DNA of 64,000 bases, taken from the NCBI GenBank assembly GCA_963718235.1, contig CAVQYR010000001.1, positions 1,152,001 to 1,216,000 of the forward strand, in the 5' to 3' direction. Shown one piece after another: positions 19,852-39,706 of the stretch. The stretch comes from an uncultured Actinomycetota bacterium (GTDB lineage Bacteria; Actinomycetota; Actinomycetes; JAHEKZ01). Positions within the stretch are counted from its first letter, which is position 1. Each line of letters opens with the position of its first letter. Under the pieces are notes generated by a model that did not search any database, had not been told where the DNA came from, and saw nothing but the letters and a program-made list of their open reading frames with translations. Made by a program: the position numbers and the translations under genes.

Positions 19852-20043
19852 GTGTACGAGTACAAGCCCCTTACAGAGCGAGACAGCAAGTTCCTGGGTC
19901 GATTCGACCCGAAATCGCTGGAGGCAGTGCTCAACGGATATTCCGCCGATGGGTGGCGAGTCGTCAGCGGCTTCCTCGCCATCGGCGCGGCTACCAGTCG
20001 GGAATGGCTCAGCCGGGGTGGTAGCGGAACGCGTACTTGGTAG
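19852..20043 (+). CDS. DUF4177-like small protein, probably truncated
   Basis: YEYK...FDPKSLEAVLNGYSADGWRVV. Confidence 0.55.
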   Translation: MYEYKPLTERDSKFLGRFDPKSLEAVLNGYSADGWRVVSGFLAIGAATSREWLSRGGSGTRTW

Positions 20044-21160: not shown

Positions 21161-21346
21161 GTCGAATCTCCCTCCTACCCGTGGGCAGTCTCCACGGTGA
21201 CCGGTGAACGTCCCAGAGGCAGAGGTCCCTTGGCCGGCGAGCACTTGACAACAGACGGCACCGCCGCCGAACCAAGGCCGGCGCCCAGGGCCGGTTCCTG
21301 CTGCATGACTGCACTTCGGAGCGACATCTACAGACGGTGTCCTGTG

Positions 21347-21757: not shown

Positions 21758-21994
21758 GGCCTCTTCTGACTGTTGCCGCCAGCCTCGCTCAGATGCCGCG
21801 GTGGAAGCCAGAGTCCAACGTCCATAGGTGACGTCGGGAGTCCGCCCTGCTCGCACTTCTCCTCGGCCCGGTGAAGGCCCCCGCCACGGCACATAGCCAC
21901 TACTTGCGTTCGTTCCCTAGCTCGCGCCTAATGCCGGATATCGCTCTTCCCGGGTGGCCTTTCGGGCGCGCTTCGGTTACGGGATCATGCTGGG

Positions 21995-22603: not shown

Positions 22604-22615
22604 CCTGGCGGCGGG

Positions 22616-23390: not shown

Positions 23391-23625
23391 ATGCTCCCGG
23401 GTCCGCTTCGGCAGCGGCTCGGGACGGACCAGAGTCGCGGAATCGGACACTGCGGACCTCCAGGAGAGACGGGAAAGGAAGCCCGTACTCATCCAGAAGG
23501 CGGCGCATCGGTCCAGCAATCCGGTTCGACAACCGAGGAAGAACCAGCATTAGGTGCGGTCGGGGATGGGGTCGACCTTGCGAGTTTGAGGCCGTGCCCG
23601 GGCTTCGTCGTGTTGTCATGGAGAG

Positions 23626-24120
23626 GTGAAGATGCCCTCCCGCAGACGTCCTCTGGCTGCGGTGGCCGTCGTGGCCGTCATCGTGCTCGTGGCGGGAGGT
23701 TGGTTGCTCCGCCCAGCATTGGCACATCCCGGAGAGCACTTCGTGGCTGGCGGAGCGGGGTTGACGGGTTCGGTATCCCTGCAGCCGGGACTCATGGCGG
23801 GCGAGACGGCGTACGCCGATGCCAGCGGCTCATGTTTGTACGACGCTGGCAGGCACGTTGCTCTGGTGCCGGTGCAGGTCAAGGGGCGTGGCGAAGGAGC
23901 GATGACACTCCACGTCACCGCGACGGTCGCGAAGCAGGCGTCCGGTGACGAAGCCATCCAGACCGCTGACACTGACATCCCTTACCAAGCCTCGGCGCAC
24001 GGCCACATGGGGACGTGGATCCAGATCCCGTTGGACCAGGCAGCCTGGCAGGCCGGAGCGACCGACTGCCGGGTGCGCTGGACGATGACCGCCGGTGCCT
24101 GGTTTCCCAACGACGATTGA
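23626..24120 (+). CDS. Secreted or membrane-anchored hypothetical protein
   Basis: Basic N-terminus plus hydrophobic helix; GGAGAGG before start. Confidence 0.65.
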   Translation: MKMPSRRRPLAAVAVVAVIVLVAGGWLLRPALAHPGEHFVAGGAGLTGSVSLQPGLMAGETAYADASGSCLYDAGRHVALVPVQVKGRGEGAMTLHVTATVAKQASGDEAIQTADTDIPYQASAHGHMGTWIQIPLDQAAWQAGATDCRVRWTMTAGAWFPNDD

Positions 24121-24190
24121 CCACCCGGCCCAGCCCGTAAGTGCCGATAGGGAGTGGTCCGACACCGACCGAGCAGGCCCGTGTCACGGG

Positions 24191-24508
24191 CTAGGAACCG
24201 GGCATGTCCAGCATCTGCAAGATCTCGATCGAGCCGATCTGGTTGTGGGGGTGACCCGAGAGCACAGCTCGGACCGCATCCACGTCCTCGGCTTGGAGGA
24301 TCGAGTACCCGCCGACCCAGCCCGCCGGACCCGGGTCCTCATCGCTCGTCGGTTGGGTCGGGACGCCCCAGTCGACGAGAGCATCCCCAGCGGCCGCACC
24401 CCAAGCCATCCAGGCGTCCATGCTCGCCTGGCGCTCCTCGGGGGTCGTGCTCGCCATCTGCTCACCCATGGACATCGTGGAGCGGTAGAGCACAAGGAAC
24501 TTCTGCAT
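24191..24508 (-). CDS. YciI-like protein
   Basis: KFLVLYR...WMAW...GGYSILQAED...HPH; GAGGA RBS. Confidence 0.75.
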   Translation of the reverse strand: MQKFLVLYRSTMSMGEQMASTTPEERQASMDAWMAWGAAAGDALVDWGVPTQPTSDEDPGPAGWVGGYSILQAEDVDAVRAVLSGHPHNQIGSIEILQMLDMPGS

Positions 24509-24967
24509 GGCTTAGTCCTCTCGGTTGAGGCCCACGGCGAATGCCGGAGACCGTCAGCGTCGCCCAGCCGCGCCTTCATGGCAAGGGTCAACTGCAAGCA
24601 CTCAGGCGACGCGAGGCACCCTGCCGATGTGCCGTTAGGCATCATCCGCGTTGAGGGGTCGTCAGGCTCGACCTGGGGCGTCGTCGAGGTAACAGTCGGT
24701 GTGCCGGGAGATGGGCTTGAACGCGCCGAGGCTCTCCTTGCCGGGCGGCTGGTGGATGACCAGGGCCTCGCCCGCGGCGGGTCGTGCATAGGGCCGATCG
24801 CTGGTGCAGACCGAGCGCGTTGTCCGGCATCTGGCGCGGCTTACGAGCGCCTGGGGACCTATGGCCCAGTGAAGTCGGTCTGATTCGAGACGAGCATGGG
24901 TCGGGGCGGTCGCATGAGCCCGACAGTGTTGCCGCTTCTTCCGGAGCCTGGAAGGAGGTCGGTGTCG

Positions 24968-25921
24968 ATGTCCGTTAGCCACCATCTGACCCATCCTTCG
25001 GACACCTTGCTTGGTGCCGATCCGTGCCACGATGTCGAGAGCCTTTCGGCTGAGGTTGCCCTCTACGGTGTGCCTTGGGATGCCGGGAGCGTGAACATGC
25101 TTGTGGCACCGGGGACCCGCTTCGGTCCGACCGCACTTCGTCGCAACAACGTCAGACTTGGCGGGTGTGTCGCCGACGCACACATCATCGACCTGGAGAC
25201 AGGCAAGGAGCGGCTCGACGGATGCACCTTGGCCGACCTCGGTGATATCGACCTGATGCCATCGCTGGGAGCCGAAGAGAACTTCGAACGGATCACTGAG
25301 GTGGCCCGGCTGGTTGCTTCCCGTGACGCGTTGCCCGTCGCGGTTGGCGGCGATCACTCGATCAGCTTCCCCGCTGGTCGTGGAGCGATGTCCCGCTACG
25401 ACAGCGTCGACATCGTGCATCTCGACGCGCACGCAGACTTCGACGACGAGATTGGCGGCTCCAAACTGACTCATGGTTCAAACCTGCGACGGCTCTCTGA
25501 ACTGCCTAACGTTCGGTACATCACCGCCCTCGGGCTCCGTCACGTGTGGCGAACCGCGTACGAGCCGATGCTCGAGTACGGAGTGAAGTTCGCGTCATCT
25601 CGTCTGATGTTCCAGGAATCACCTACCGACATCGTCGGCCAGCTGGTCCCGAAAGCAGAGAACATCTACGTCAGCATCGACATCGACGTGCTCGACGCCT
25701 CCGTCGTCCCCGGAACCTCACTACCCGAACCCGGCGGGTTGACCTACAACATGCTCATCGAGACCCTCGCAGCCGTCGCCACGCGAGGCCGGATCATTGG
25801 GGTGGACATCGTCGAGATCAATCCGATGAACGACGCCAGCAATAGCTACTCGATGGCAGCGCGAGTCTCGTCGTGGGTCCTGTTTGAGTTCCTTTCTGCG
25901 ATCCGCGAGGCGCGCCTATAG
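24968..25921 (+). CDS. Agmatinase/ureohydrolase (arginase family)
   Basis: GTRFGP, GGDHS, DAHAD, SIDIDVLD, DIVEINP; GGAGG upstream. Confidence 0.9.
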   Translation: MSVSHHLTHPSDTLLGADPCHDVESLSAEVALYGVPWDAGSVNMLVAPGTRFGPTALRRNNVRLGGCVADAHIIDLETGKERLDGCTLADLGDIDLMPSLGAEENFERITEVARLVASRDALPVAVGGDHSISFPAGRGAMSRYDSVDIVHLDAHADFDDEIGGSKLTHGSNLRRLSELPNVRYITALGLRHVWRTAYEPMLEYGVKFASSRLMFQESPTDIVGQLVPKAENIYVSIDIDVLDASVVPGTSLPEPGGLTYNMLIETLAAVATRGRIIGVDIVEINPMNDASNSYSMAARVSSWVLFEFLSAIREARL

Positions 25922-25999
25922 TCGAGCCAAAGCCGACAGCCCCCAAGGAAGAGCTGAGGGCCGCACCGAGGTGCCGTTCGGCGCGGTCCGGTTGCACGT

Positions 26000-26180
26000 A
26001 TCGCTGGGTAGATCGCTGCTCGGCCAAGGACGATGCCCTATCGCCCTCGGCCGCTATGCCGAGGCCGCACCCGTCCTGCAGCAGGCGCGGATCATCTTCG
26101 AAGGACTCCACGCCACCCCCGCCCTCGCCCTCGCCGACATCGACAACCTCCTCGGCGAAGCCACCGCGCTGAGTTCCTGA
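26000..26180 (+). pseudogene. C-terminal TPR-like fragment of a larger protein
   Basis: LLGQGRC.IALGRYAEAAPVLQQARIIF with no credible start. Confidence 0.45.
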
Positions 26181-26243
26181 GCTGTCTGGGCGGGATCGAC
26201 CGGTGGCCTCGTTCCGTCCGTTCAACTGCCGATCGTGTGTTTC

Positions 26244-26430
26244 TCAGGCCGCTGAACCCCAGCGGGCAGACCGAAGCCCCCGGTACACCGACGCCCGACT
26301 CACCCCGAGCACCCGCGCGATGGTGGCGACGTCATGCTCACCGGACTCGTGCATCGCCTTCGCAGTGGCCAGCTTCTCCGCAGTCCACACGGTCGGCCGC
26401 CCACCCGTACGGACACGGGCCCGAGCCGCC
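26244..26430 (-). pseudogene. Serine resolvase C-terminal HTH fragment
   Basis: AARAR.RTGGRP...IARVLGVSRASVYRGL. Confidence 0.75.
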
Positions 26431-26540
26431 CCAAACCAGCATGCGGGCGTTCGCGCTTCGGGTCCGCTCGGGCGGGGCGAAGGCCTCTGGGCACCGTCCA
26501 ACCTCGGGGAACATGATGAACCAAGAGCGGGAGGTTAGCC

Positions 26541-26888
26541 ATGAGCGCCCCAGAAGCCGAACGCCCGACCCGAATGCCCTGGCTTCGGCGAGCGTGGGTC
26601 GCCGTCGCCGTGATTCCACTTGTCTTCGTGCTTTCCAGTGCTGTGGGCTTCAGTCTGTACAAGGCGACGAACTCCCCGCGCGAGAACATCGACGCTTCCC
26701 TGTGGATGGACCTGTTCAGCGGCGTGCTGTCCGCCGCGATCTTCCTGGTGCCTTGCGCGGCGGCAGCGATCTACGGGAAGCGGGCGATCAGCGATGACGA
26801 CAGGCGCGGCTTGGTCCCTGCAGTCATCGGGGCACTGGCGGGTCTGGGGTACACGGTCGTCGCACTCGTTGCGCTGATTGCCGCCTAG
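26541..26888 (+). CDS. Small membrane protein
   Basis: Three hydrophobic segments; GGAGG RBS. Confidence 0.7.
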   Translation: MSAPEAERPTRMPWLRRAWVAVAVIPLVFVLSSAVGFSLYKATNSPRENIDASLWMDLFSGVLSAAIFLVPCAAAAIYGKRAISDDDRRGLVPAVIGALAGLGYTVVALVALIAA

Positions 26889-27035
26889 TTGATCTGTTCA
26901 TGGACGCTGTTGACACGAGTTGAGACCTCCGGCGAGGTATTCACTCCCTCTTCCGCTGGGCAAGCACGCGACTGAACCGACCCATGTGCCATTCCAGGGC
27001 TGGTCTGATGGCGTGACGTGAAGCGGTTCTTGGTC

Positions 27036-27440
27036 TTAGAAGACGCCCGCGTGGTGCTCGGCCACCGGTAGGCCGGTGTCGCGCCAGGCCGCCAGGCCGC
27101 CGTCGATGCTGGCGACGCTTTGGTAGCCGATCTGGCTCAGGGTGACTGCGGCCAGGGCGGCTCGTCCCCCGGTGTTGCAGTAGACGATCACGCGTCGGGT
27201 CGGGTCCAAGCCCACCTGCAGGCTGGCCGGGAGTCGAGGGCCGCATTCTGGGTCGGCGACGAACTCCAATAGCCCCCGGGGCACCAGGACGGCCCCGGAG
27301 ATGTGGACCTCCGACTCGTTCGGTTCGCGGACGTCGACTAGCAGTGGCACACCGGTTGCCAACTCGTTCTGGGCGTCCTGGGGTGAGATGAGTTCGATGC
27401 TGGTCTTGGCTTGCTCCACCAGGTCACGGGTGGACTTCAT
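27036..27440 (-). CDS. Rhodanese-like domain protein
   Basis: LVDVREPNE, VPRGLLEF, YCNTGGR, GGLAAW. Confidence 0.88.
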   Translation of the reverse strand: MKSTRDLVEQAKTSIELISPQDAQNELATGVPLLVDVREPNESEVHISGAVLVPRGLLEFVADPECGPRLPASLQVGLDPTRRVIVYCNTGGRAALAAVTLSQIGYQSVASIDGGLAAWRDTGLPVAEHHAGVF

Positions 27441-27563
27441 GGCGCACCACACCTTCTGTCGGAGGCGGTCCGGCCGACCTCACTGCCTCCAGGCTGCCCA
27501 GCCGCAACCCACCAGCGATAGGACCGATGGTCCGGACCTGGAACGGCTGTCCACCACCCCGAA

Positions 27564-27868
27564 GTGCCGATATGCAGCGCTCAGGTGGATTCCTGCGGCG
27601 CTCGTCTGGGCTCGCTTGGTCACCCGGGGCGGACAGCGACGGGCACTGCGTTGAGCGACGACGAAGGCGGTACTGCGAGCGTGGTGAGTGACCTTCGGGC
27701 TCTCCTAGTGACCGTTGGCTATTCCACGCTCCCGTTCAGCGATGAAGCCTCTGACGTGGAATGTGATGCCGCTGATTCCGCCCCGCACGTGGCGTCGATC
27801 GGCGTTTGCGCTGGTCAGGGATCTGGAGCGGGTGACCGGGATCGAACCGGCATGGCCAGCTTGGAAGG
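27564..27868. repeat. 305-bp direct repeat, copy 1 (element end plus att/tRNA-Gly 3' half at 27824-27868)
   Basis: Near-identical to 39373-39677. Confidence 0.95.
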
Positions 27869-27997
27869 GCGGGCTTGTCCGGGTCGTGTCCAAGTCGGTG
27901 ACCTGCAGTCCCTCGTCTTCAGGGGTGTTCTGCACACCTCCTTGTGGGGGCCTCGTGGAAGGAGCAGGGGTCTCTCACGGTCACCAAGGAGGACGAA

Positions 27998-29407
27998 GTG
28001 ATGAAGGACCCCACGATTCACGGCTGGGACGACGGCAAGCATCTCGCTGCAGCAACCGGCGGCGGGCATGACGAGCCTCCTTCTGGTCTCTCGGCTGTCC
28101 GGATTTCCGGGACGACGGGACTGACAGATGGAGGTGTGCACAATGCAGGCGAAGACCGAGGGCCTGGGCCGCGCAAGGCCGCCGGTCGCAGGCGGTCACG
28201 GCGGGTGTTCGGGACGGTGGAGCGGTTGCCGTCGGGTCGGTTCCGGGCTCGGGTGATCGGTCCGGATGGTCGGTATGTGTCGGCGCCGGCGACGTTCGCG
28301 AACCGGACGGATGCTTCGTTGTGGGTGGACGTGCAGCACGCCGACCTGGTTCGCGGCAGTTGGCGGGCGCCGGTCATGGTGTCGGCGTCACCATCGGTGG
28401 CCGTTTACGTGGCGCGGTGGATCGAGGAGCATCCGACCGCCAGGGAGTCGACCAAGGAGCTGTACCGGGGCCTGTTACGCACCTGCATCACCCCGACCAT
28501 GGGTCGCGCCTCGGTGGCGGGGCTGACTGCTGCGGCTGTGAGGCGCTAGCGCCACGCCCTGGGGGAGCGGCTGGCCGCAGACGCCGAACGCCGCCGCGCT
28601 GACCTGCAGACCAAGGGTCGGCAGGGGAGTGCGGCGTCGGTGCGGGACGGCGGCGCGAGGCAGGCGCAGGCGTACCGGTTGCTGCGGGCGGCGATGACCG
28701 CCGCGGTCGGTGATGGGCTGCTGCAGGCGAACCCGTGCACGATCCGCGGCGGCGCCGTCCCGCGTCGGGCGCTCGGCCGGTCTCGGCCGGTCACGGAGCG
28801 TCTGCTTTCCCCGGCCCAGGTCGCCGACGCGGCGGCAGCGATGCCCGCGAGGTATCGGGTGCTGGTGCTGATGGCGGCCTGGTCGGGATTGCGCCAAGGC
28901 GAGCTTCTCGCCCTGACCCGGGCCGACCTGGACCTGGATGCGCTCCCGGCGCGAGTGATGGTTCGCAAGGCGGTGCGCCGCACCGACACCGGCCAGGTGC
29001 GGGTCGATGTGCCTAAGACCGCGTCCTCGGTGCGCACGGTCACGTTGCCCGACCCGCTCACTGGGGCCCTACGGGGACATCTGGAGGAGTTCGTGGCCCT
29101 CGATCGTGAGGCATTGGTGTTCGCCACTCGTACCGGCACGACCCCGGCCCGGTCCAACCTCGGCGCCACCTGGCGCCGCGCCTGCATCAGCGCCGGCGTT
29201 CCACTGGTCCGGTTGCACGACCTACGCCACGTCGCCCAGGTGTTCGCTGCAGAGGCCGGCGCTACCCTGCCCGAGCTGATGGCCAGACTCGGCCACGCCA
29301 CCCCCGCCGCCGCACTGGTGTACCTGCACGCCCGGACCGACCGCGACCTGAAACTCACCCAAGCTCTGGCCACCGCGATGACCGACGCGGCCGGCGCCTC
29401 CGGCTAG
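27998..29407 (+). pseudogene. Tyrosine integrase with a single in-frame TAG at 28547-28549
   Basis: Both ORF halves share a frame; GLRQGELLAL, PKT, HDLRH, LGH, Y motifs; arm-binding-type N-terminus. Confidence 0.88.
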
Positions 29408-29502
29408 CCGAAGCTGACAACGATCCCTGATCAGTGAGCGAATAGTGAGGCGAGCGCGAACGGCACTTCGGTGCGCTCTTTGGGGGCCGCCGACGAGCCC
29501 CC

Positions 29503-29886
29503 TCAGGCGAGAGCAGCCGCATTGGCTGCCTGATCCTCCTGGATGGCCCAGCATTCGACGGCCTTGCCGTCTCGGACGTGCCAGACGAACACGGTTCGGC
29601 CTGAGAAGTGGCGCGGCTTGTCGAACCCGGCTTCTGTCATGACCACGACGTGGTCATCGTCGGCCAGGATCGCGTGGATCTCCTGGTGGAACGTCCCTTC
29701 GGTGATTTGCGCGAGCTTGCCGAAAAGGCCGAATACCTCGTCTCGCCCATGGAAGTCACCACTCAGCACGCTGGTTCCCGGTGCATGCCACGCAATGTCA
29801 TCGGAGAACAGCCCGGCGATGGTATCCATGTCGCCCTTGGCGAATGCCTCGAAGCCCGACTGGATCAACTCAGCGTTTGGGTGCAT
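29503..29886 (-). CDS. SnoaL/NTF2-like protein
   Basis: FEAFAKGDM...DIAWHAPG...HVRDGK. Confidence 0.88.
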   Translation of the reverse strand: MHPNAELIQSGFEAFAKGDMDTIAGLFSDDIAWHAPGTSVLSGDFHGRDEVFGLFGKLAQITEGTFHQEIHAILADDDHVVVMTEAGFDKPRHFSGRTVFVWHVRDGKAVECWAIQEDQAANAAALA

Positions 29887-30019
29887 GTGCGGACTCCCCT
29901 CAAGGGGCCGCAGACGCAGCCCTTGGGCACGGTCTTACACCCTCCTCATGAGGCGGTCAACGGCTTCCTCTGCTCAGAGGGTGGCGTGCACCAGATCGGC
30001 ACATCGGTTCGGGTCCCGC

Positions 30020-30661
30020 CTAGGTCACCTTGAGGATGATGTCCTTCAACTCGATGAGAGCCGCAACCCGATAGGTCGCCGCTGAGAAGTCTTGTCCACT
30101 CGAGAAGTCGTTGTGGACAACGGCGCAGTCGATACCGGCCGCCACGGCCGAGGTCAGTCCTCTGGAGGAATCCTCGACCACCAACGTCTCTTCCTTGGTG
30201 GCTCCGAAGCGCTTCAAGCCGGTCAAGTACGGCTCCGGGTGCGGCTTGGCGTGCTCGTAGTCCTCGCGAACTAGGACGAAGTCCATGAACTTCCTGATCT
30301 GCCGCTTCTCATGGATGAGGTCGAAGTCGACCTTCTTTGCCGTTGTCACGATGGCCATATGGACGAACATCGACAACTCAGCAAGAGCCTCTGCGACACC
30401 ATCGATCTCAATGGCCTCGGTTCTCAGATACTCCTGGTAGTAGCGGTCGCGAACCTCACGCTGTCTGCTGATCGTCTGCTCATCGACGCCCGCGGCCCTG
30501 GCTTGCGCCCAAGTGCCCAGCCCCAGGTTCATATCGCGGAGGTAGCGGTCTCTTTCCAAGATCACACCGATGTCCTCTAGGGCGCGCTCCCCGGCTTTGA
30601 AGTACCAGAATTCGGTGTCGACAAGGACCCCGTCGTGGTCGAAGAGGACGTACTGCTTCAC
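30020..30661 (-). CDS. HAD family phosphatase
   Basis: LFDHDGVLVDTE, KPHPEPY, VVEDS. Confidence 0.92.
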   Translation of the reverse strand: MKQYVLFDHDGVLVDTEFWYFKAGERALEDIGVILERDRYLRDMNLGLGTWAQARAAGVDEQTISRQREVRDRYYQEYLRTEAIEIDGVAEALAELSMFVHMAIVTTAKKVDFDLIHEKRQIRKFMDFVLVREDYEHAKPHPEPYLTGLKRFGATKEETLVVEDSSRGLTSAVAAGIDCAVVHNDFSSGQDFSAATYRVAALIELKDIILKVT

Positions 30662-30771
30662 TCCCGATTCCTTCCGCCATCCGCCCCAGGACACCTCAAC
30701 GGACGGACCGATGATGCCGTTTCATCGCCCCGTGAGGCGAGCCATAGCGGCACGTCGGCAGCGGAGCGCTC

Positions 30772-31059
30772 TCAGGCGTCGGCCTGGATCTCCACGACGC
30801 GCAGCCCCGCCCGCTCGATCCCAACCTCCGCCTGAGCCGGCGCGTTGGCGGTTACTGCCGCGAGGAACCCGCGTGCCTGCTCAAGGGTCTCGAAGACGAT
30901 GAACGTGACACTCACGTCCGGCTCGTCCACGTCGCCCGCCCAGAACCCCCGGACGAATCCTGGGTTCTGGCTCACACCCGCGACGAGCTTCGGCAGCAGC
31001 CCGGCCTGCTCCTCCCTCATCGAGTTGTCCATTCGCCACGTCCCGGCAACGGCAAACAT
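30772..31059 (-). CDS. Small hypothetical protein (dimeric alpha-beta barrel-like)
   Basis: PGFVRGFW; GGGAG RBS. Confidence 0.7.
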   Translation of the reverse strand: MFAVAGTWRMDNSMREEQAGLLPKLVAGVSQNPGFVRGFWAGDVDEPDVSVTFIVFETLEQARGFLAAVTANAPAQAEVGIERAGLRVVEIQADA

Positions 31060-31266
31060 CAGACTCCCCTCTCGCGATGACGCCAGCAGGACTTGCCATT
31101 CTGCCGTGAGCGCGTGAAGGCGCTAGTGCCTTCTCTTGTCCGATTCATGCGAGAACGGCACGTGACGCGCTACGTCCGCGCTGGTTGCAGGGCGGTTAGT
31201 CTGGCCGAACGAGCCAACTCGGCTCCGCAGTCGTCAACGATACGACGAGCCACCCCGGGAGCACTC

Positions 31267-31731
31267 ATGAGCAGCTTCGACGCCACCAACGGCACCCGTG
31301 GTGCACGGCAGCCCGGCGGCGCCCTTATGGCGTGGTTCAACAAGCGCATGGCCAAGCGGATCCGCGGTGGCGGCGGCAAGGCGCTGGGCCTCGATCCGCT
31401 GCTGCTCATCACCCTGGGGGCCAAGTCGGGCCAAACCCGCGAGACGCCCGTCGCCCGCTTCGCCGGCCCTGACGGCTCCTGGTACGTCGTCGCCTCGGCC
31501 AACGGCGCCGCACGCAACCCGGCCTGGTACTACAACGTCGCCGCCCACCCAGACCAGATCCGCATCGTGATCGACGGGGTCGAGACACCGGTGACGGCGC
31601 AACAACTCCACGGCGACGACCGCGCAGAGGCCTGGAAAGCGATCACACAGGCTCAGGCCCGGTTCGCCAAGTACGAGACCAAGACTGACCGAGACATCCC
31701 AGTCATCCAGCTCACCCCACGTTCGGCCTAG
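31267..31731 (+). CDS. Deazaflavin-dependent nitroreductase family (Ddn/DUF385)
   Basis: GAKSGQTRETP, VASANGAARNPAWYYN, TDRDIPV. Confidence 0.9.
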   Translation: MSSFDATNGTRGARQPGGALMAWFNKRMAKRIRGGGGKALGLDPLLLITLGAKSGQTRETPVARFAGPDGSWYVVASANGAARNPAWYYNVAAHPDQIRIVIDGVETPVTAQQLHGDDRAEAWKAITQAQARFAKYETKTDRDIPVIQLTPRSA

Positions 31732-31837
31732 ATCAGCCTCGTCCCCGAGTTCAACCGCCATGTCCCGCGAGCACCGCGTCAGAACGGCACATCGGGGCGG
31801 CTCGTAGCGGCAAGCGATCGGCGTATCTGCGACACGG

Positions 31838-32362
31838 CTACAGCGTCACCACTTCCTCCACCTCGCCCGTGGCCGTGTTGGTGATCCCGACGGACGCAAC
31901 GACGGAGTGGATCGGGTGATAGCCGAGCACGGCACCCATGGCGACCAGGACCTGCCGGGGGCCCAGCCGCTGCGTCAGCGTGCAATGCGGCACCCAGCGG
32001 CCCGGCCGGTAGTACTCCCACGGCTCCTGGGCGCCTTGCGCGAGGATCTCGTGAACCCGCTGGTGGAGTCTGAGGAGTCGCCCTTCAGTGGTCACCGCGA
32101 GGAATATGGCGCCCTCCTCCCCTGGGAAAGTGCCCAGGGTATGCAGGTCAAGGCGGATGGGCGCTTCCACGAGGACTGAGCGCAGGGCATCGCGGCTCAC
32201 GGCCGCGAGCGACTCCGCGATGCCTAGGGTGACGTGGGGTCGGTGCCTGCCGTGTGTCTGGCCAGCCAGGCTGGGGACACCGGCAGCGTCGATGCGAGCC
32301 CACAGCCGACGGACGTCGCGTTCCGCGGCCTCGTCGAGGAACATCTCAAGTGCCTGCGCCAT
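31838..32362 (-). CDS. 2H phosphoesterase (2'-5' RNA ligase family)
   Basis: Two HxT motifs: PHVTL and PHCTL. Confidence 0.88.
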   Translation of the reverse strand: MAQALEMFLDEAAERDVRRLWARIDAAGVPSLAGQTHGRHRPHVTLGIAESLAAVSRDALRSVLVEAPIRLDLHTLGTFPGEEGAIFLAVTTEGRLLRLHQRVHEILAQGAQEPWEYYRPGRWVPHCTLTQRLGPRQVLVAMGAVLGYHPIHSVVASVGITNTATGEVEEVVTL

Positions 32363-32461
32363 GCCTCCCCCTCACCCGAGTGATACTGCCGGATCGACAC
32401 CCAGCGAGACGATCGCGAACGGCACATCGCGGGCGGTCGATTGCGATCACCTGACTGACGG

Positions 32462-32998
32462 CTACTGCCCGGTGACACCGTCGATGGACTCGCGGAGCAG
32501 ATCAGCGTGGCCGTTGTGGCGCGCGTGCTCCTCGATGAGATGGCACAGGATCCATCGCAGCGAAACGCGCTGGCCATCCTCCTGCTCCTCGGAGAGGGCG
32601 GGCAGGCCATCAGGTCCCGCCAAGGCATCTGCCACCACCCCGTCCGACACCGCGACAGATTCCTCGAACCAGGCGAAGAGCTGCTCTGGCTCAGCCCCGG
32701 CCGCCGTGGCGAAGGACCAGCTGGGGTCCTCAGGGTCCATCTCCGCCAACCATGACGGTCGCGCGACCCCGCCCGCAAACGTCAGGTTGAGCCAGCCCGC
32801 CTCCACCACCGAAAGGTGCTTCAGCAGGCCACCCAGAGTCATCGTGGTTGGTGCCAGCGGAGTCGAGAGTTGGATCTTGGTGAGGCCTGAGCACTTCCAA
32901 CGCAACGTGTCGCGCTGGTAGTTGAGGAATCCCAACAGCGTGGCGGCCTCATCTTGTGCGACTGGAGGATCTACACGGTCATCAGCACCGAACATCAT
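32462..32998 (-). CDS. DinB/DUF664 family protein
   Basis: WKCSGL, GLLKHL..VE, HLIEEHARHNGHADLLRE. Confidence 0.9.
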   Translation of the reverse strand: MMFGADDRVDPPVAQDEAATLLGFLNYQRDTLRWKCSGLTKIQLSTPLAPTTMTLGGLLKHLSVVEAGWLNLTFAGGVARPSWLAEMDPEDPSWSFATAAGAEPEQLFAWFEESVAVSDGVVADALAGPDGLPALSEEQEDGQRVSLRWILCHLIEEHARHNGHADLLRESIDGVTGQ

Positions 32999-33122
32999 CG
33001 CGCGACCGTAGCAACGCCTTCGACGTTTGGCGAGGCACCGAGGAGGCGATCGCGAAGACCGGTTGGCTCGTCAGAAGACGATGCAGATCGGCACGTCGGA
33101 GCGGTTCTGGCATCCTGCCGTG

Positions 33123-33599
33123 ATGACCGTGGACGCTGTGACATGGCGCAACACCCGACCGAAGAAGCGCGTAGGCGCTGGTGTGCTCGTCCGTGACGAG
33201 AAGGGTCGAGTGCTGCTGGTCGAGCCGACCTACAAGGAGTCCTGGGAGATCCCTGGCGGGTCGGTGGAAGCCGACGAGTCACCGCGGACTACCTGCGCAC
33301 GCGAGGTCGAGGAAGAACTCGGACTCAGGCGCGGCGTCGGACGGCTGTTGTGCATGGAATGGCAAGGGCCGGCCCCCGATCGCAGCGAGTCCCTGATGTT
33401 CATCTACGACGGCGGCGTGGTCTCAGACCCCTCTGCCATCCGTCTCCCATCCGACGAACTGGCTTCGTTCAGGTTCGTCGACCCGGGCGAGTTGGACGCC
33501 TTGATGGTGGAGCGACTTGCGCGTCGGATTCGTGCCGCTCTCAGGGCGCTCGCCGATGACACTGTGGCTGAACTGGAAGACGGGGCACCCGGCGAGTAG
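33123..33599 (+). CDS. NUDIX hydrolase
   Basis: Nudix box GGSVEADESPRTTCAREVEEELG. Confidence 0.92.
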   Translation: MTVDAVTWRNTRPKKRVGAGVLVRDEKGRVLLVEPTYKESWEIPGGSVEADESPRTTCAREVEEELGLRRGVGRLLCMEWQGPAPDRSESLMFIYDGGVVSDPSAIRLPSDELASFRFVDPGELDALMVERLARRIRAALRALADDTVAELEDGAPGE

Positions 33600-33686
33600 A
33601 AGGTTCGTTCGCGCGACGTAGGCGAGAGCGAATGCCGGATCTTGTTGCACGAATGCGAACGAGAACGGCACTTCGGCGCGGCTGGC

Positions 33687-34295
33687 CTACGGCTTGGTCC
33701 ACTCCAACGAGTAGCGGTAGTACGCACGACGGCGCAGCCTGGCACCTGGGAGCGGGAGCCGGGCCTGGTCGCGAATGTCTGTCAGCGTTTCTGATGGCTC
33801 GACGGTTGGCACGTCGTCGGGCCACTGCTCGTGGCGCAGCGCTCCGACAACGCGAGCCCGGGGTATCGAGGCCACGGCGAACGCGAAGTCCGCCTTCGAC
33901 GCGATCCGCGTGAGACCGAGGACGTAGAGCCGGCCACCGGGGCGAAGCAGTCGCACGCATCGACGAAGTGCGGCGCTGGTGTCCATGTGGTGGAGGGTCG
34001 CAACGACAGCGACGAAGCCGAAGGACGACTCGTCGAGGCTGGCCTCGTCGAACGTGCACTCGACGAGGTTCACGTTGGTCAGGTTAGCGCAGCGTCGCCG
34101 GGCCCGCTCAGCTGCTTGCGGGTCCGGCTCGATCCCGACGACGTGCCGTCCTGTGCGAGCCATGCGCGACAACAGCAGTCCATCGCCGCACCCGATGTCC
34201 AGCACATCCCCGACCGTCTCGTCGCACCGACGAAGGATCTCTACGTGGAAGGCCGTGTTGTGGTTCCAGTACGCATCAGGCGACTCGGGAACCAC
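33687..34295 (-). CDS. Class I SAM-dependent methyltransferase
   Basis: VLDIGCGDG, LHHM, LRPGG. Confidence 0.9.
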   Translation of the reverse strand: MVPESPDAYWNHNTAFHVEILRRCDETVGDVLDIGCGDGLLLSRMARTGRHVVGIEPDPQAAERARRRCANLTNVNLVECTFDEASLDESSFGFVAVVATLHHMDTSAALRRCVRLLRPGGRLYVLGLTRIASKADFAFAVASIPRARVVGALRHEQWPDDVPTVEPSETLTDIRDQARLPLPGARLRRRAYYRYSLEWTKP

Positions 34296-34324
34296 CCGAG
34301 CGATACTGCCGGGTCTCGCGCCTT

Positions 34325-34418
34325 GGGTTCAAGGAAGTGACGCAACACCCTGAGTTGTAGGGGTGTTGGATTGATGGGTCGTCCGAAGTTTCCGAAGCAG
34401 TTCGAGCGGTCGTTCTGG
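34325..34418 (+). mobile_element. Possible IS30-family left-end remnant
   Basis: GGTTCAA-N8-CGCAACAC resembles actinobacterial IS30 termini as I recall them; followed by ATG 34374 reading MGRPKFPKQFERSFW. Confidence 0.45.
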
Positions 34419-34511
34419 GCGAGCGAGAACGGCACATCCGTGCCGTGAATCGGTTGGGTAGGGCTGCCCGTAGGCCCGTTGGGCCGTCGGTCACCACAGG
34501 GTGAGTGAGGA

Positions 34512-34940
34512 TCAAGTGTTGTTCACGATGCGTTGCCCGAGCGAGCAGTCGGAGGACACTCCGCCGTAGTCGAGACAGACGCGAGGGCGGACATCCAGGA
34601 TCTTGCGATGACGGCGGTAGATGTTGTAGTAGGAGACGTCGCCGTGGTCGCCACCCGCGCAGCCCTCGCCGTTGTTGAGCCACTCCGTCGAACCGTGGGA
34701 GCCATTGGCGAAGTCGATCACGAAGTTGCCCTTGACTCCCTTTCCGTCACACGACAGGTCGACCACGTCGACCTTCACTTGGAACTTCGAAGCGCCGTCG
34801 AAACCGACGGACCCCGACATCGTTCCATGACCGTTGCCGGTTTGGATCATGAAGTCTTGCCAGATGCCAGCCTGGGCTGTTGAGGGAGCGAGAAGACCGC
34901 CGACAAGCCCAACCGCGATCACATACCTTCGCAACCTCAT
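34512..34940 (-). CDS. Small secreted Cys-containing hypothetical protein
   Basis: Signal peptide ending AQA; four cysteines in the mature part. Confidence 0.7.
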   Translation of the reverse strand: MRLRRYVIAVGLVGGLLAPSTAQAGIWQDFMIQTGNGHGTMSGSVGFDGASKFQVKVDVVDLSCDGKGVKGNFVIDFANGSHGSTEWLNNGEGCAGGDHGDVSYYNIYRRHRKILDVRPRVCLDYGGVSSDCSLGQRIVNNT

Positions 34941-34979
34941 CTGGACACCACCGCCAAGAGGACCGGTACCGTGCGTCCA

Positions 34980-35180
34980 ATCGTAGTCCGACGCCTCGCC
35001 GAATGTCGGCGATCTCATCCCAGGCCACCCACCGCCGCGGAGCGGTGGGCGGCTGACCTCGGCATCCCCGCCTACGCCATCGACGAGCAGACGGCCATCA
35101 AGGTCGTCGACGGCTCCGTCGAGGTGATCTCCGAGGGGCAGTGGACACCGTTCGGGGTCACGGCCGCCGAGCAGTCGTGA
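34980..35180 (+). pseudogene. C-terminal fragment of peptidase E (S51)-like gene
   Basis: AERWAA...PAYAIDEQTAIKVVDGSVEVISEGQW. Confidence 0.65.
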
Positions 35181-35347
35181 AGGCGCGCCGTGGCACAAGA
35201 CCCGGCGGCAAGCGGGATCCTCACTCCGGACGTCGCTGTACAGGTCGTCGCATCAGTCCGAGCCCAAGCGGACGTGCCGATCGGCTCGCCCCGCGTGGCG
35301 TCGGCAAGCTCGTTGCCCCGCGACATTCAGCCTCCTACCCTGACCGG

Positions 35348-35944
35348 GTGACGGAAGCGGACCTGAAGTCTGTCCTCGTCGGTCGTCTCGACCGGCTCAA
35401 CCAGGCTGTCCAGCACAAGCTCGAGGGTCTGTCGGAGTACGACTTGCGCCGACCGATGACCCCGACCGCGACCAACCTGCTCGGCGTCACGATGCATCTT
35501 GCCAGCCTGCAGTCGGAGTACTTCGGCAAGACCTTCGGCAACCCCTTCCCGCGAGAAGACGAGTTGTACTTCCTCACCGACGAGGACGCCGACCCGCAGG
35601 ACGACCTCTGGGTTCGCCCGGAGGCGACGTCGGAGTGGGTGGTCGGGCTCTATCGCGCCACCTGGGATCACGCCATGGAGACATTCGCGACGCTGGACCT
35701 GGACTCGCCGGGTCAGATTCCGACGAGTCCCTACGCGGAGGTCACACTCGGCGAGATGCTGGTGCACATGGTCGACGAGACCGCTCGCCACGTGGGACAC
35801 ATGGACATCGTGCGTGAGTTGATCGATGGTGCTGTCGGCAGGCACGCCGGCGACGGGAACATCATCGACGGCTATGACTGGGCTGCGTACCGGAGACGCG
35901 TGGAGGCCGGAGCCCGGGAGGCCGAGGAACGCGCCGAGTCCTGA
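35348..35944 (+). CDS. DinB/DUF664 family protein
   Basis: KLEGLSEYDLRRPMTPTATNLLG, ETARHVGHMDIVRELIDG. Confidence 0.9.
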   Translation: MTEADLKSVLVGRLDRLNQAVQHKLEGLSEYDLRRPMTPTATNLLGVTMHLASLQSEYFGKTFGNPFPREDELYFLTDEDADPQDDLWVRPEATSEWVVGLYRATWDHAMETFATLDLDSPGQIPTSPYAEVTLGEMLVHMVDETARHVGHMDIVRELIDGAVGRHAGDGNIIDGYDWAAYRRRVEAGAREAEERAES

Positions 35945-36059
35945 GTTCAGTGCGCCACTCGGCCTGAAGCATCACCGACCGATCCGAAGTGCCGTTCTCG
36001 TTCGCTTCCGTGCAACAAGATCCGGCAACGCGCTCGCCTGCGAAGGGCATGATGCAGGC

Positions 36060-36959
36060 GTGAAGATGCACGAGGGCGAACTCGACGTCAATGCTGAGTT
36101 GGTTCGACGGTTGGTTGCGGACCAGTTCCCGCAGTGGTCGGATCTGCCGATCGTTCACGTCGCACCTGCGGGCTCTGTGAATGTCATCTTTCGGGTGGGC
36201 GATTCATTGGCCGCCAGGTTTCCACTCCAAGCGGGCGACCCGGAAGAAGTCCGAGATTGGCTGATGCAAGAGGCTCGGGCAGCGTCTGAGTTCGCGGCCG
36301 TGTCGCCCGTTCGGTCGCCGAGGCCCATGGCGCTGGGAGAGCCAGGGCATGGCTATCCGCTGTCGTGGACGGTCCAGGACTGGCTACCCGGGCGCGACGC
36401 CATCGCGGAAGATCCTGCAGTGTCCGCGGCCTTCGCGCTGGAACTCGCGGATCTGCTGGCCTGTCTGCGTGAGGCAGACACGGGAGGGCGGCGTTTCTCG
36501 GGTGGAGGGCGCGGGGGCCATCTACCAGACCACGACGAGTGGATGGACCTGTGCTTCGCCAAGAGTGTGGGACTCGTCGACGTGGAGACATTGCGGGGTC
36601 TCTGGGAGAGCCTGCGGGTCCTTCCTGAGGTTGACGAGGACGTCATGTGTCACGGCGATCTGACTCCGCAGAACGTGCTGGTCGATGCGGGCCACTTGGT
36701 GGGAGTCCTCGACACTGGCGGCTTCGATGCGGCGGATCCGGCGCTCGATCTGGTGTCGGTCTGGCACCTGCTCGATTACGAGCGCCGGGAACTGGTCCGG
36801 CAACACTTGAAGTGCGGCGACGTTCAGTGGCATCGCGGGATGGCGTGGGCTCTCCAGCAAGCGATGGGTCTCGTCTGGTATTACGCCGAGACGAACCCGA
36901 TCATGAGTCGGTGGGGCCTACGGACTCTGGATCGCCTCGTGGGCGCGTCCGCCGCCTAA
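36060..36959 (+). CDS. Aminoglycoside phosphotransferase (APH) family protein
   Basis: LVADQFPQW, HGDLTPQNVLV, VLD.G, DPALDL. Confidence 0.9.
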   Translation: MKMHEGELDVNAELVRRLVADQFPQWSDLPIVHVAPAGSVNVIFRVGDSLAARFPLQAGDPEEVRDWLMQEARAASEFAAVSPVRSPRPMALGEPGHGYPLSWTVQDWLPGRDAIAEDPAVSAAFALELADLLACLREADTGGRRFSGGGRGGHLPDHDEWMDLCFAKSVGLVDVETLRGLWESLRVLPEVDEDVMCHGDLTPQNVLVDAGHLVGVLDTGGFDAADPALDLVSVWHLLDYERRELVRQHLKCGDVQWHRGMAWALQQAMGLVWYYAETNPIMSRWGLRTLDRLVGASAA

Positions 36960-37066
36960 GTGCCGTTCTGGCTCGGTCACTTTCGCAGGATCCGGCATCC
37001 GGTGCTGCACCTTGGCGCCGCTTGGTGCGCTACCCGCCGACGCGCTCGCCGCGCTATCGTTCGAGA

Positions 37067-37681
37067 GTGTCAGCCACGATCATCGGCGTCCCCATGGAAC
37101 ACCTCATCCCGGCTGGGATACTCGGCCCGGATCCCGTGACCGTGAACGTGCGAGCCTTCTTCGTGCCCCACGAAACCGGTCTTACGCTCGTGGACACCGG
37201 GCTGGACCCCGGTGGGGAGGCCCTCGATCTGGCATTGGCAGACGCCGGAGCGTTATGGACGGATGTCTCGGATGTCGTGATCACCCACGCCCATCCCGAT
37301 CACGTCGGGGCCCTCGACCATGTGCGCGTGGCAGCGCCCCAAGCCCGGATTCACTCCAACCCTGCCGAGGGGATGGCTGGGACGCTGCCCCTGTGGGACG
37401 GGGACACCGTGAACAGCCTGCGGGCGATAGCGACTCCGGGGCATACGGCAGGGCACCTGAGCTTGATCGATGAGAGCCAAGCGACGCTGCTGGTTGGGGA
37501 CTGTCTAGGCGTGGTCGACGGGCAGCTCGTGCGGGCCCCTGCGCAGTTCACCGCAGACGGCGAGCAGGCCGAGGCGTCACTCCATCGCCTGCTCAGCATG
37601 CGCGGGTCTCGAATGCTGTTCGCCCACGGCGAGGAGCTCTCTGAACCGTGGGCCGACCTTGAGGTCCTCCTCCCAGACTGA
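37067..37681 (+). CDS. MBL-fold metallo-hydrolase
   Basis: LVDTG, THAHPDHVG, TPGHTAGH, GD, HG. Confidence 0.9.
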   Translation: MSATIIGVPMEHLIPAGILGPDPVTVNVRAFFVPHETGLTLVDTGLDPGGEALDLALADAGALWTDVSDVVITHAHPDHVGALDHVRVAAPQARIHSNPAEGMAGTLPLWDGDTVNSLRAIATPGHTAGHLSLIDESQATLLVGDCLGVVDGQLVRAPAQFTADGEQAEASLHRLLSMRGSRMLFAHGEELSEPWADLEVLLPD

Positions 37682-37892
37682 TCAAATCGCGCTCCACGGC
37701 TGGGCACGATTCGGCGGAGTGCCGTACTCACGCGCTTCGGTGAGAACGAACCGGCGTCCGCGCTCGTCGGCTTGTGTGACCCCTGCCGGCACCCGCCGGC
37801 CACTGCTAGGGGTCAAACTGATGAATCTGTCCGCGCGCTCCGGCCGAGCGTGACCGCTGGGCGGATCTGTCACACGGGACCGGGAGGCCATC

Positions 37893-38303
37893 GTGGTAGC
37901 CGACGAGAATGTTGCAGCTGTGCGGGACTTCATCGAGCGGGCGTGGAACGGCGGTGACGAGTCGGTCTTCGAGGAGCACCTTTCTGTGGATTTCCCGCTT
38001 CCGGGAGGCCGAGACGGGTTCAAGCGAATGATCTTCAAGTACCGGCAGGCGTTCGCGGACTTCCACATGGAGGTGCACGACATGTTCGGTGCGGAGGACA
38101 AAGTCGTGACCGTGCTGACGATGCGCGGAACACATGTGGGCGAGTTCCTCGGCGTGGCTCCGACTGGCCGGAGCATGTCGATCTCCGGCATAGCCGTGGA
38201 CATCATGCGCGACGGCCAACGTGTCGGTGGTGGCGCGCAACTAGATCACCTCGGGTTACTCCAACAGCTCGGAGCAGTCAGCGGGGCGTGCTCGATGTTC
38301 TGA
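37893..38303 (+). CDS. SnoaL-like ester cyclase
   Basis: AFADFH...GTHVGEFLGVAPTGR...LLQQLG; GGAGG RBS. Confidence 0.88.
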   Translation: MVADENVAAVRDFIERAWNGGDESVFEEHLSVDFPLPGGRDGFKRMIFKYRQAFADFHMEVHDMFGAEDKVVTVLTMRGTHVGEFLGVAPTGRSMSISGIAVDIMRDGQRVGGGAQLDHLGLLQQLGAVSGACSMF

Positions 38304-38535
38304 CACAGTTCATAGCCGTGCCGTGTGACGGCAGCCGTGAACAGCGCAAGCCGAGTTCGCTCGAACCCGTCACGGCGACCACTGTTCGAGGCCATCTGCG
38401 ACCGGACAACCGACGTCACATGACCGCGCAGATGTGCTGTTATCCAGCGCGTCATGAAGTGCTGATCCGGCATTCGCGCTCGTCTCGCCGTGTAACCAGT
38501 TGGCCGGTTGACCGCTGGCCGATGTACTTGACCTC

Positions 38536-39372
38536 ATGCCGTGCAACGTCCTTGTTACCGGCCAGCGTGGACTGATCGGCCTGTACGTCGTAGCGGAGTT
38601 GGAACGTCAGGGGCACATTCCTGTGGGCTTTGATCTCCAGGACGGCCAGGACGTGCGCGACCGCACTGCGTTAGCGGCTTCGCTGTCAGGCTGCGACGCC
38701 GTGATCCACCTTGCCGCCGCTGATGACCCGCTACCGGCTGAGGTGATCGTGGACAGCATCGTGGTCGGAACCATGAACCTTCTGGATCTTGCGGTGGCCC
38801 AGGGGTGCCATCGGGTGGTCATTGCCTCGAGCGTGGACGCACTCGGGATCTTCATGAGCAAGGCACCTCCGGACTATCTGCCGATCGACGATGCGCATCC
38901 CGCCCGTCCGGGAACCCCATACGGGGCCGCAAAGCGGGCCGCCGAACTTCTGGCGGAACGGGTCGCCGCTTCCACTGACCTAGAGGTGATCTGCCTCCGA
39001 CCGCCCGGCGTCTGTGACGACGCAACGATGGCCAAGATTCGCGCCAATCGCGTCGAGCGTGCCTCCTATGAATGGGAACCGATCTGGGAGTACAGCGCCT
39101 GGATCCATGTCGAGGATCTCGCCCGCGCCCTTGTGGCTGCCTGCTTCTGCCCGCGCTCTCCCGGCTCGTTCGCCTGCGTGCTGGTGGCAGCCTCGGATGT
39201 CAACTCCGATGAGCACTCGGGTCGTGATCTCGCTGCCGTCGTCCATCCCACGGTGCCGTGGCGAGGAGGAGCCGAGTACCACACCGATCCCCGACGATCG
39301 CTCATCGACTCGACGAAGGCCGTCGAGATGCTGGGGTGGGCTTCGAGGATCCTGTGGACCGACCGAACCTAG
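38536..39372 (+). CDS. NAD-dependent epimerase/dehydratase
   Basis: VLVTGQRGLIG, VIHLAA, YGAAK. Confidence 0.9.
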   Translation: MPCNVLVTGQRGLIGLYVVAELERQGHIPVGFDLQDGQDVRDRTALAASLSGCDAVIHLAAADDPLPAEVIVDSIVVGTMNLLDLAVAQGCHRVVIASSVDALGIFMSKAPPDYLPIDDAHPARPGTPYGAAKRAAELLAERVAASTDLEVICLRPPGVCDDATMAKIRANRVERASYEWEPIWEYSAWIHVEDLARALVAACFCPRSPGSFACVLVAASDVNSDEHSGRDLAAVVHPTVPWRGGAEYHTDPRRSLIDSTKAVEMLGWASRILWTDRT

Positions 39373-39677
39373 GTGCCGATATGCAGCGCTGAGGTCGATT
39401 CCTGCGGCGCTCGTCTGGGCTCGCTTGGTCACCCGGGGCGGACAGCGACGGGCACTGCGTTGAGCGACGACGAAGGCGGTACTGCGAGCGTGGTGAGTGA
39501 CCTTCGGGCTCTCCTAGTGACCGTTGGCTATTCCACGCTCCCGTTCAGCGATGAAGCCTCTGACGTGGAATGTGATGCCGCTGATTCCGCCCGGCACGTG
39601 GCGTCGATCGGCGTTTGCGCTGGTCAGGGATCTGGAGCGGGTGACCGGGATCGAACCGGCATGGCCAGCTTGGAAGG
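39373..39677. repeat. 305-bp direct repeat, copy 2
   Basis: Near-identical to 27564-27868; includes the tRNA-Gly 3' half. Confidence 0.95.
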
Positions 39678-39706
39678 CTGGGGCTCTACCATTGAGCTAC
39701 ACCCGC
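39633..39706 (-). tRNA. tRNA-Gly (TCC)
   Basis: GCGGGTGTAGCTCAATGGTAGAGC...CCAGC-CTTCCAA-GCTGG...GGTTCGATCCC...CACCCGCTCCA cloverleaf. Confidence 0.97.

Follow-up and report, generated by a model that had tools for sequence, protein, structure and literature searches.

The locus raises the question of why a series of short, related sites that separate mostly single genes of unrelated families should face one way and then the other, and whether an exact palindrome at the inner end of one block is where the two directions originate. The initial annotation had described a bidirectional array, unlike those of classical integrons, and this description held: across the whole 64,000-nt stretch of DNA that we analysed (the window), a core profile of the sites returned the polarity series + | −×5 | +×9 | −×6. 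We judge the chances to lie somewhat in favour of these being recombination sites of an integron-like platform that is not itself an integron, with cassettes in two opposed arms, carried on two tRNA-Gly elements.

The window is high-GC DNA (GC 0.64–0.75), with a drop at 29–39 kb to 0.64–0.66, below the flanks. To the right of the cassette region lie tRNA-Gly(tcc), tRNA-Pro, tig, clpP1 and clpP2. The trigger factor encoded by tig is most similar, at 88–97% identity, to proteins of uncultured 'Actinomycetes/Actinomycetota bacterium' genomes, and the 120 matches listed include none from a cultured relative. Self-BLAST and alignment revealed three copies of the tRNA-Gly 3′ end (45–49 nt) in the window, marking the boundaries of two elements, E1 and E2; the copy at 18909–18957 is 95.9% identical to those at 27820–27868 and 39629–39677 by self-BLAST. 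The features that frame the region are as follows.

18909–18957: 49 nt of the tRNA-Gly 3′ end, copy 1, the left boundary of E1 (self-BLAST)
18958–27819: E1, putative integrative element
27564–27868: 305-bp direct repeat, copy 1, the right end of E1 and left boundary of E2
27869–39628: E2, putative integrative element
27944–29407, '+' strand: int2, phage/plasmid-type integrase gene at the left end of E2
39373–39677: 305-bp direct repeat, copy 2, which runs into the intact tRNA-Gly gene
39633–39706, '−' strand: intact tRNA-Gly(tcc) gene

The two copies of the 305-bp repeat (27564–27868 and 39373–39677) are 99.0% identical by self-BLAST, and each is made up of a site arm (GTGCCGATA...), a 260-bp arm and 45 nt of the tRNA-Gly 3′ end. 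In the alignment, identity starts exactly at the conserved site arm GTGCCGATA; leftward of it, the 4-nt centre of the site included, the copies differ, with a rhodanese cassette in E1 and an epimerase cassette in E2. A breakpoint at the 4-nt centre is what would be expected for exchange within the site core. From the terminal site to the tRNA core, the intervening 260 bp (27564–27819 and 39373–39628) are 99% conserved between E1 and E2 and are probably one arm of the attachment site of an int2-type integrase. The int2 gene starts 76 nt inside the element boundary, consists of two same-frame ORFs split by an in-frame TAG at 28547–28549, and resembles annotated integrases of actinomycete plasmids in its N-terminal part. 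Repeated tRNA-Gly 3′ ends together with the 305-bp repeat read as the signature of tandem integrative elements, and the region has both the tRNA 3′ direct repeats and the adjacent tyrosine integrase of a tRNA-targeting element or genomic island. As part of the platform reading as a whole, and with the same slightly favourable odds, we take E1 and E2 to be two tandem, decaying integrative elements inserted in tRNA-Gly. Beyond the tRNA core, no alignment was found between the left ends of E1 and E2.

We searched for the sites with two profiles: one was based on 18 sites of the window, the other, a core profile, on 29 sites. Aligned on an invariant GCAC, the 21 window sites share a conserved arm GA(A/T)CGGCAC (GAACGGCAC), a 4-nt centre that is mostly WTCG, and an inverted arm GnGCGG, which is degenerate (GTGCGC, GTTCGG, GGGCGG, GAGCGG, GCGCGG and GTGCGG all occur among the 21). 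An accessory region carries an aTGCCGGat box about 20–30 nt upstream. Arm, 4 nt and inverted arm together have the layout of a simple tyrosine-recombinase core. Allowing up to 3 mismatches, the motif GAACGGCACWTCGG was found 35 times where 18.1 would be expected, and RAWCGGCAC was found 16 times where 3.28 would be. The core profile gave 21 matches with E≤0.16, every one within 19762–39390, and its remaining 9 window matches had E≥0.79; the sites are confined to the stretch between the outermost tRNA-Gly 3′ copies (18909–18957 and 39629–39677), that is, inside E1 and E2. Both elements share the same order by core profile, a '+' block followed by a '−' block. Nine sites facing one way followed by opposite sites had been reported for what is now E2, and we recovered this arrangement, nine '+' sites (29458–34447) and then six '−' sites (35263–39395). 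If 15 sites were randomly oriented, a series with at most one switch would be expected with probability (2 + 2×14)/2^15, or about 0.0009. The arms of E2 are organised as follows.

29422–29479, 29976–30014, 30706–30761, 31142–31163, 31751–31804: left arm, '+' sites 1–5
32376–32436, 33044–33107, 33620–33683, 34378–34447: left arm, '+' sites 6–9
Left-arm genes, first four: SnoaL-like, HAD, 95-aa ORF, F420H2 quinone reductase (reversed)
Left-arm genes, last four: 2′-5′ RNA ligase-like, DinB/MST, NUDIX (reversed), methyltransferase
35263–35305, 35976–36039, 36950–37001: right arm, '−' sites 1–3
37714–37768, 38421–38485, 39359–39395: right arm, '−' sites 4–6
Right-arm genes, all on the '+' strand: DinB/MST, APH-family kinase, MBL-fold hydrolase, SnoaL-like, NAD-dependent epimerase

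The cores of the nine '+' sites lie at 29458, 29994, 30745, 31153, 31782, 32417, 33086, 33663 and 34427, and those of the six '−' sites at 35269, 35984, 36955, 37714, 38429 and 39366; the site at 31142–31163 was the ninth '+' site to be recognised, and only on reading the sequence. The conserved arms that belong to the backbone are at the outer ends of the arms of E2, one at 39366, next to the tRNA-proximal arm of 260 bp, and one at 29458, next to int2. The sites at 33620–33676 and 35984–36039, one in each arm, are 57-nt inverted repeats with 91% identity, far above other site pairs; their likeness stops at the 4-nt centre, and the pair brackets 2.3 kb that include both the palindrome and the scar described below.

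The smaller array of E1 includes a block of five '−' sites (24132–27588) that the first reading of the sequence had missed.

19138–19410, '−' strand: ParE toxin (Pfam PF05016, E=7.7e-6)
About 19400–19700, '−' strand: Phd/YefM antitoxin (Pfam PF02604, E=5.4e-18)
19762–19793, '+': the sole '+' site detected in E1, GCGAGTTCTATGGGCAC ATCC GTGCGC
24132–24159, 24616–24667, 25959–26015, 26973–27047, 27553–27588, '−': the five sites of the right arm
Right-arm genes (Pfam): YCII '−', arginase-family '+', 115-aa ORF '+', rhodanese '−'

The '+' arm of E1 has this one site, to which the Phd/YefM–ParE cassette (19138–19700), the sole cassette of that arm, belongs. In the polarity series this site is placed at 19777, and the five '−' sites extend from 24141 to 27564. 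A resemblance to the E2 palindrome had been pointed out at 19775–19790, and this proved to be a real member of the family: it reads GCGAGTTCTATGGGCAC, agrees with the sites of a related locus in another genome (L015, described below) at 17 of 18 positions, and was picked up at E=0.2 by the profile whose training set was confined to the window and at E=0.0015 by the core profile. A second resemblance noted in the same context, at 1800–1815 (CGGCAC-GATA-GTGCCC), was matched by neither profile. It is preceded by GCGAGCGTGGCAC and lies at the start of a YCII gene (1369–1818), and E1 also has a YCII cassette; it may be a chance occurrence or a very old solitary site.

By Pfam, the intervals between sites mostly hold one gene each, from unrelated families: SnoaL, HAD, F420H2 reductase, 2′-5′ ligase-like, DinB/MST, NUDIX, methyltransferase and APH-family kinase, and further MBL-fold, epimerase, arginase-family, rhodanese, YCII and Phd/ParE. 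Most genes have their site upstream in sense orientation (15 forward against 4 reversed), and the gene directions given in the initial annotation for E2 agree with ours: of the 8 left-hand genes, 6 are on the '−' strand and 2 (F420H2 quinone reductase and NUDIX) on '+', and all 5 complete genes right of 35300 are on the '+' strand. Since four genes with good Pfam support (F420H2 reductase, NUDIX, YCII and rhodanese) are reversed with respect to their own site, site polarity is not simply set by transcription. The stop codons of the APH-family gene (TAA, 36957–36959) and the epimerase gene (TAG, 39370–39372) fall inside the 4-nt centre region of the next site, so the cassettes are packed to the base. 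Folding of the 21 sites was weakly better than that of shuffles (mean z −0.76, n=21, p=0.007), and RNAalifold on 13 sites gave no consensus structure; in some sites TGCCG pairs with CGGCA around a variable inner stem, with weak z-scores and outside any RNAalifold consensus.

We then considered the palindrome, which had been taken as the centre from which the sites diverge.

34430–34445, '+': CGGCAC-ATCC-GTGCCG (CGGCACATCCGTGCCG), core of the last '+' site

The exact palindrome is indeed present, and it is the sole exact CGGCAC-N4-GTGCCG in the window; shuffled sequences gave 0.05 such matches on average, and 5 of 100 shuffles contained one or more. The proposal that it is a back-to-back pair of sites did not survive inspection, since its GTGCCG is the second arm of the same '+' site. 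No '−' site was found at 34440 by the window-site profile (E≤10) or the core profile (E≤5), and no accessory features occur to the right of GTGCCG (34445); there is therefore one site here, not a back-to-back pair. Its second arm differs by one base from the commonest second arm, and that base makes the palindrome perfect. With leave-one-out base frequencies, a perfect second arm would arise at any one site with probability 0.011, and at least once among the 21 sites with probability 0.21. The palindrome is thus the core of one ordinary site inside the array, located after the methyltransferase cassette and before the gene that follows it, with a second arm that is perfect by chance. Nor is it the switch point it had been taken for: polarity changes about 500–600 bp further right, within a non-coding segment bordered by two genes.

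34512–34940, '−' strand: gene X, 142 aa, with a signal-like N-terminal segment (translation)
34941–35036: arm junction of E2, non-coding, flanked by the start of X and by the truncated peptidase E gene
35037–35180, '+' strand: 3′ remnant (last 47 codons) of a peptidase E/S51 gene (PF03575), residues 176–222 of about 220

Gene X matched no Pfam or NCBIfam family, gave a lead only in the Atlas ('secreted protein', score 0.88), and has no detectable relation to the secreted-like protein next to the E1 recombinase gene int1 (23626–24120). To its right, residues 23–69 of the ORF at 34971–35180 match residues 176–222 of 222-aa peptidase E proteins with 89–93% identity. In a search with this remnant, 527 of 768 candidates had E≤0.001, and most of those listed are proteins of 218–247 aa with PF03575. 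The missing N-terminal codons, about 175, are absent elsewhere in the window, and the remnant stops 85 nt before the first '−' site, like other right-arm genes. The arms of E2 therefore meet at a truncation (deletion) scar at 34941–35036 and not at a designed centre. No recombination site was detected at 34941–35036 by profile, even at E≤1000. A relic of X's own site at about 35000–35016 (CGAATGTCGGCGATCT) was considered and set aside, as the likeness was visual only and the profile search was empty at E≤1000. It is speculation that the centre of E2 once held an int1-type gene, lost with the deletion that truncated peptidase E.

In E1 the central segment contains a Kelch protein, a 181-aa ORF, DUF7711, int1 and the secreted-like protein (23626–24120).

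22616–23451, '−' strand: int1, Xer-like simple tyrosine recombinase, centre of E1 (Pfam PF00589, NCBIfam Xer models)

The recombinase at 22616–23368 matches Xer models with E=1e-28 to 7e-30, scoring under the model cut-offs, and matches the integron-integrase models over its C-terminus only (TIGR02249, 54 bits against a cut-off of 265; NF011946, 30.7 against 435). Among 8000 scored proteins, 6613 are relatives with E≤1e-20; the closest full-length ones are typically about 303 aa and most have PF13495+PF02899+PF00589, and the more distant relatives among the matches listed have PF02899+PF00589. The nearest solved structure to the family is XerD (1a0p), with which the 303-aa form aligns end to end (E=3.3e-17); IntI4 (2a3v) aligned with it at residues 219–292 only. 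The window copy keeps the first ~14 codons and is without about residues 15–45 of the 303-aa form, with an internal deletion and a frame change, and judging from this gene structure it is probably defective. No int1-type gene was found in E2. Given a defective int1 and no such gene in E2, the cassette arrays of both elements may be frozen.

Comparison with other genomes began from a motif scan of genome contigs, which yielded at least 120 loci, each taken with 2 kb on either side (4 kb), and most of these were chance single matches, for example in Pseudomonas. Among the loci listed, two alone hold three or more sites, each of a single polarity within its 4 kb. In the first (L015), from another uncultured Actinomycetota genome, a recombinase with 120 of 145 residues (83%) identical to int1 is followed by six sites on one strand, which were detected by the profile trained solely on sites of the window. 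The DNA matches the window up to the end of the recombinase gene, and the genes beyond differ; in this locus the sites follow the 3′ end of that gene, and the '−' arm of E1 lies beyond the 5′ end of int1. The second (L042) has three same-polarity sites, with no recombinase within 2 kb. Its sites lie, within 1–4019, among a DUF932 gene, a DUF1508 gene, a NifX-like ORF and an IS (rve) transposase. No cassettes are common to the window and either locus. In the plasmid collection the best int1 relative is 43% identical and has no cassette-site array near it, and blastn there returned no close homologue. The pairing of the int1 family with these sites is a co-occurrence in two genomes, and on this comparison of sequences the Xer-like family likely acts on them. 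The two-armed layout is documented in this window alone, in two related elements.

From the anatomy of the sites we propose the following working of the platform. At a '+' site the accessory region and conserved arm would belong to the left cassette, and at a '−' site to the right cassette. Each element has two opposed site blocks around a central segment (int1 in E1; gene X and the truncated peptidase E in E2), which would be flanked by the weak arms of sites. At the opposite pole from the central segment would lie an integration module (260-bp arm, tRNA core and int2), flanked by the opposed sites 27553–27588 and 29422–29479 with their conserved arms facing the module. In the excised circle, a pair of oppositely oriented cassette arrays would lie between the two modules. 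Exchange within one arm would excise or insert cassettes, and recombination between arms would give inversion only, reshuffling cassettes between arms while the pattern is kept. Because the arms are mutually inverted, between-arm recombination could only invert, so that neither backbone module would be deleted or separated. The same polarity in the neighbouring element argues, as far as site order can tell, for an inherited architecture over a one-off event; E1 and E2 share a backbone, and their common polarity does not amount to two independent observations.

The other readings fare less well. To the earlier idea of a central entry point we attach only the faintest probability. It would make the palindrome the entry site of two back-to-back half-arrays whose arms grow outward from new cassettes; that the exact 6-4-6 palindrome is unique in the window and sits at the inner end of the '+' block speaks for it, as do genes reading away from the middle, but no '−' site is detectable at 34440, the arm-N4-arm core is common to every site with a chance of about 0.2 for a perfect copy, the switch lies 500–600 bp further right at a truncated gene, and the conserved arms owned by the backbone are at the outer ends (29458 and 39366), not in the middle. 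The second explanation offered initially, an inversion catalysed at these sites, is compatible with the data and unproven, and inversions between opposed arms would preserve the pattern. On this explanation, a single site-specific inversion between an opposed site near int2 and an internal site would have flipped part of a once-unidirectional array. We consider this unlikely. From tyrosine-recombinase topology the outcome would be exactly this layout, a '+' block and then a '−' block, with weak arms bordering the central segment between them; E1, with one '+' and then five '−' sites, resembles the state before such an event, and the recombinase gene faces the array by its 5′ end in E1 and by its 3′ end in the related Actinomycetota locus. 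Yet it needs a pre-existing opposed site, that is, a two-polarity design, and so merges with the two-armed platform, and what lies at the E2 junction is a deletion scar, where no hybrid site is present.

It is improbable that the repeats are regulatory or REP-like intergenic elements whose strand follows the neighbouring gene. They are intergenic, precede most genes in sense orientation (15 forward, 4 reversed), and fold slightly better than shuffles (mean z −0.76, p=0.007). Against this, four genes with solid family support run opposite to their site, the sites occur only inside the tRNA-bounded elements, and the 99% identical repeat ends precisely within a site core. In another genome, moreover, sites of this kind stand beside an 83% identical recombinase among entirely different genes, and no Rfam family matches them (a search of the window returned two tRNAs only, at both thresholds). 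An assembly artefact, with a contig segment mis-joined or mis-oriented at the switch, seems highly improbable as well: the 57-nt inverted repeats with 91% identity (33620–33676 and 35984–36039) could confuse an assembler, but flipping the segment between them should keep both the two-arm pattern and the central scar, the junction at 34941–35036 is unique sequence, and E1 has the same polarity order. A chromosome terminus, with polar motifs converging on dif, would have its polarity switch coincide with a switch in GC skew and its motifs spread over the replichores; here cumulative GC skew rises on across 31–40 kb and the sites occur only at 19.8–39.4 kb, so this reading is rejected.

Returning to the two-armed platform, its closest analogues are integrons, especially sedentary chromosomal ones, in which, likewise, cassettes that mostly hold one gene each and are unrelated in function form arrays, a site bounding every cassette, with most genes in one direction relative to the sites and few reversed, toxin-antitoxin cassettes, and a tyrosine recombinase gene beside the array. 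The Phd/YefM–ParE cassette of E1 brings to mind the toxin-antitoxin cassettes known from large chromosomal integrons; by Pfam the cassettes here, as in integrons, comprise one gene or rarely two, of unrelated functions; and PF13495 also occurs in integron integrases. Integron attC sites have GTTRRRY/RYYYAAC boxes and form imperfect hairpins, in which the boxes are arranged as R″/L″...L′/R′, and IntI integrases carry a characteristic insertion in their catalytic domain. The platform differs in that its recombinase is Xer-like by both models and structures and not of the IntI type, and in that its sites, with a GA(A/T)CGGCAC-N4-GnGCGG core, have neither such boxes nor a consensus hairpin (RNAalifold, shuffles). 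In addition, the larger conserved part of a site lies upstream of its gene, and two opposed arms carried on a tRNA-integrating element stand in place of one single-orientation array running from attI beside intI. According to Cury et al. 2016 (PMC4889954), complete integrons were absent from all Actinobacteria genomes.

Other known systems match in part. The dif (pdif) modules of Acinetobacter plasmids are also bounded by Xer-type sites, shuffled between replicons, and include toxin-antitoxin and accessory modules; they differ from the platform, whose sites are direct within each arm and have a 9-4-6 core, an accessory region and a recombinase gene of their own. Judged by their layout, the sites here also show neither a dif-like 11-6-11 arrangement nor alternating orientation. 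In general, pdif sites are copies of chromosomal dif used by host XerC/XerD and alternate in orientation around each module. Shufflons (Rci/sfx) share several asymmetric tyrosine-recombinase sites on both strands next to a recombinase gene, with opposed copies inverting the DNA between them, but the segments of a shufflon serve as alternative ends for a single gene, and inversion is all they undergo. The platform instead has independent genes of different families, mostly direct-repeat sites that would allow excision and insertion (runs of 5, 9 and 6 consecutive direct sites), and one polarity change per element. Finally, tRNA-integrating actinomycete elements and tandem island accretion resemble it in the partial tRNA 3′ end at each boundary and the adjacent plasmid-like integrase; what sets the platform apart is its cargo, an array of cassettes delimited by sites and accompanied by a second recombinase of Xer-like type. 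Genes for replication or transfer were not seen in E1 or E2.

A full-text literature search, which had bioRxiv supplements and subscription journals outside its scope, found no description of such arrays. We put forward, tentatively and as a possibility with somewhat less than even chances, that the locus represents an undescribed Actinomycetota counterpart of the integron: a large family of about 303-aa Xer-like recombinases acting on GAACGGCAC-N4-GnGCGG sites, mobile on tRNA-Gly elements, with two opposed arrays between integration and recombinase modules and cassettes exchanged or inverted without loss of either module. Integrons are the textbook device for gene stockpiling and reshuffling, and a functionally analogous platform that differs in recombinase lineage and site type and has two arms would, if confirmed, mean that cassette capture was invented independently in a major soil phylum, and would also provide a new site-specific recombinase family with short, defined sites. 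The narrower claim carries a more sober lesson, namely that a striking palindrome was an ordinary site core and that the polarity change is marked by a deletion scar.

Elsewhere in the window, two short stretches at 15650–15860, to the left of the first tRNA-Gly fragment, are 85–89% identical to the 5′ part of int2 (27951–28266), and they are followed by Fic/DOC (15944–17254), PRiA4_ORF3 (17431–17985) and luciferase-like monooxygenase genes. The region from 15650–15860 onward may be a third, older island without cassette sites. Further left, a cluster at 3893–10916 encodes complex-I/Mrp-like subunits and has a gene like that for the NiFe-hydrogenase large subunit, and as a whole it resembles a group 4 membrane-bound hydrogenase-type module.
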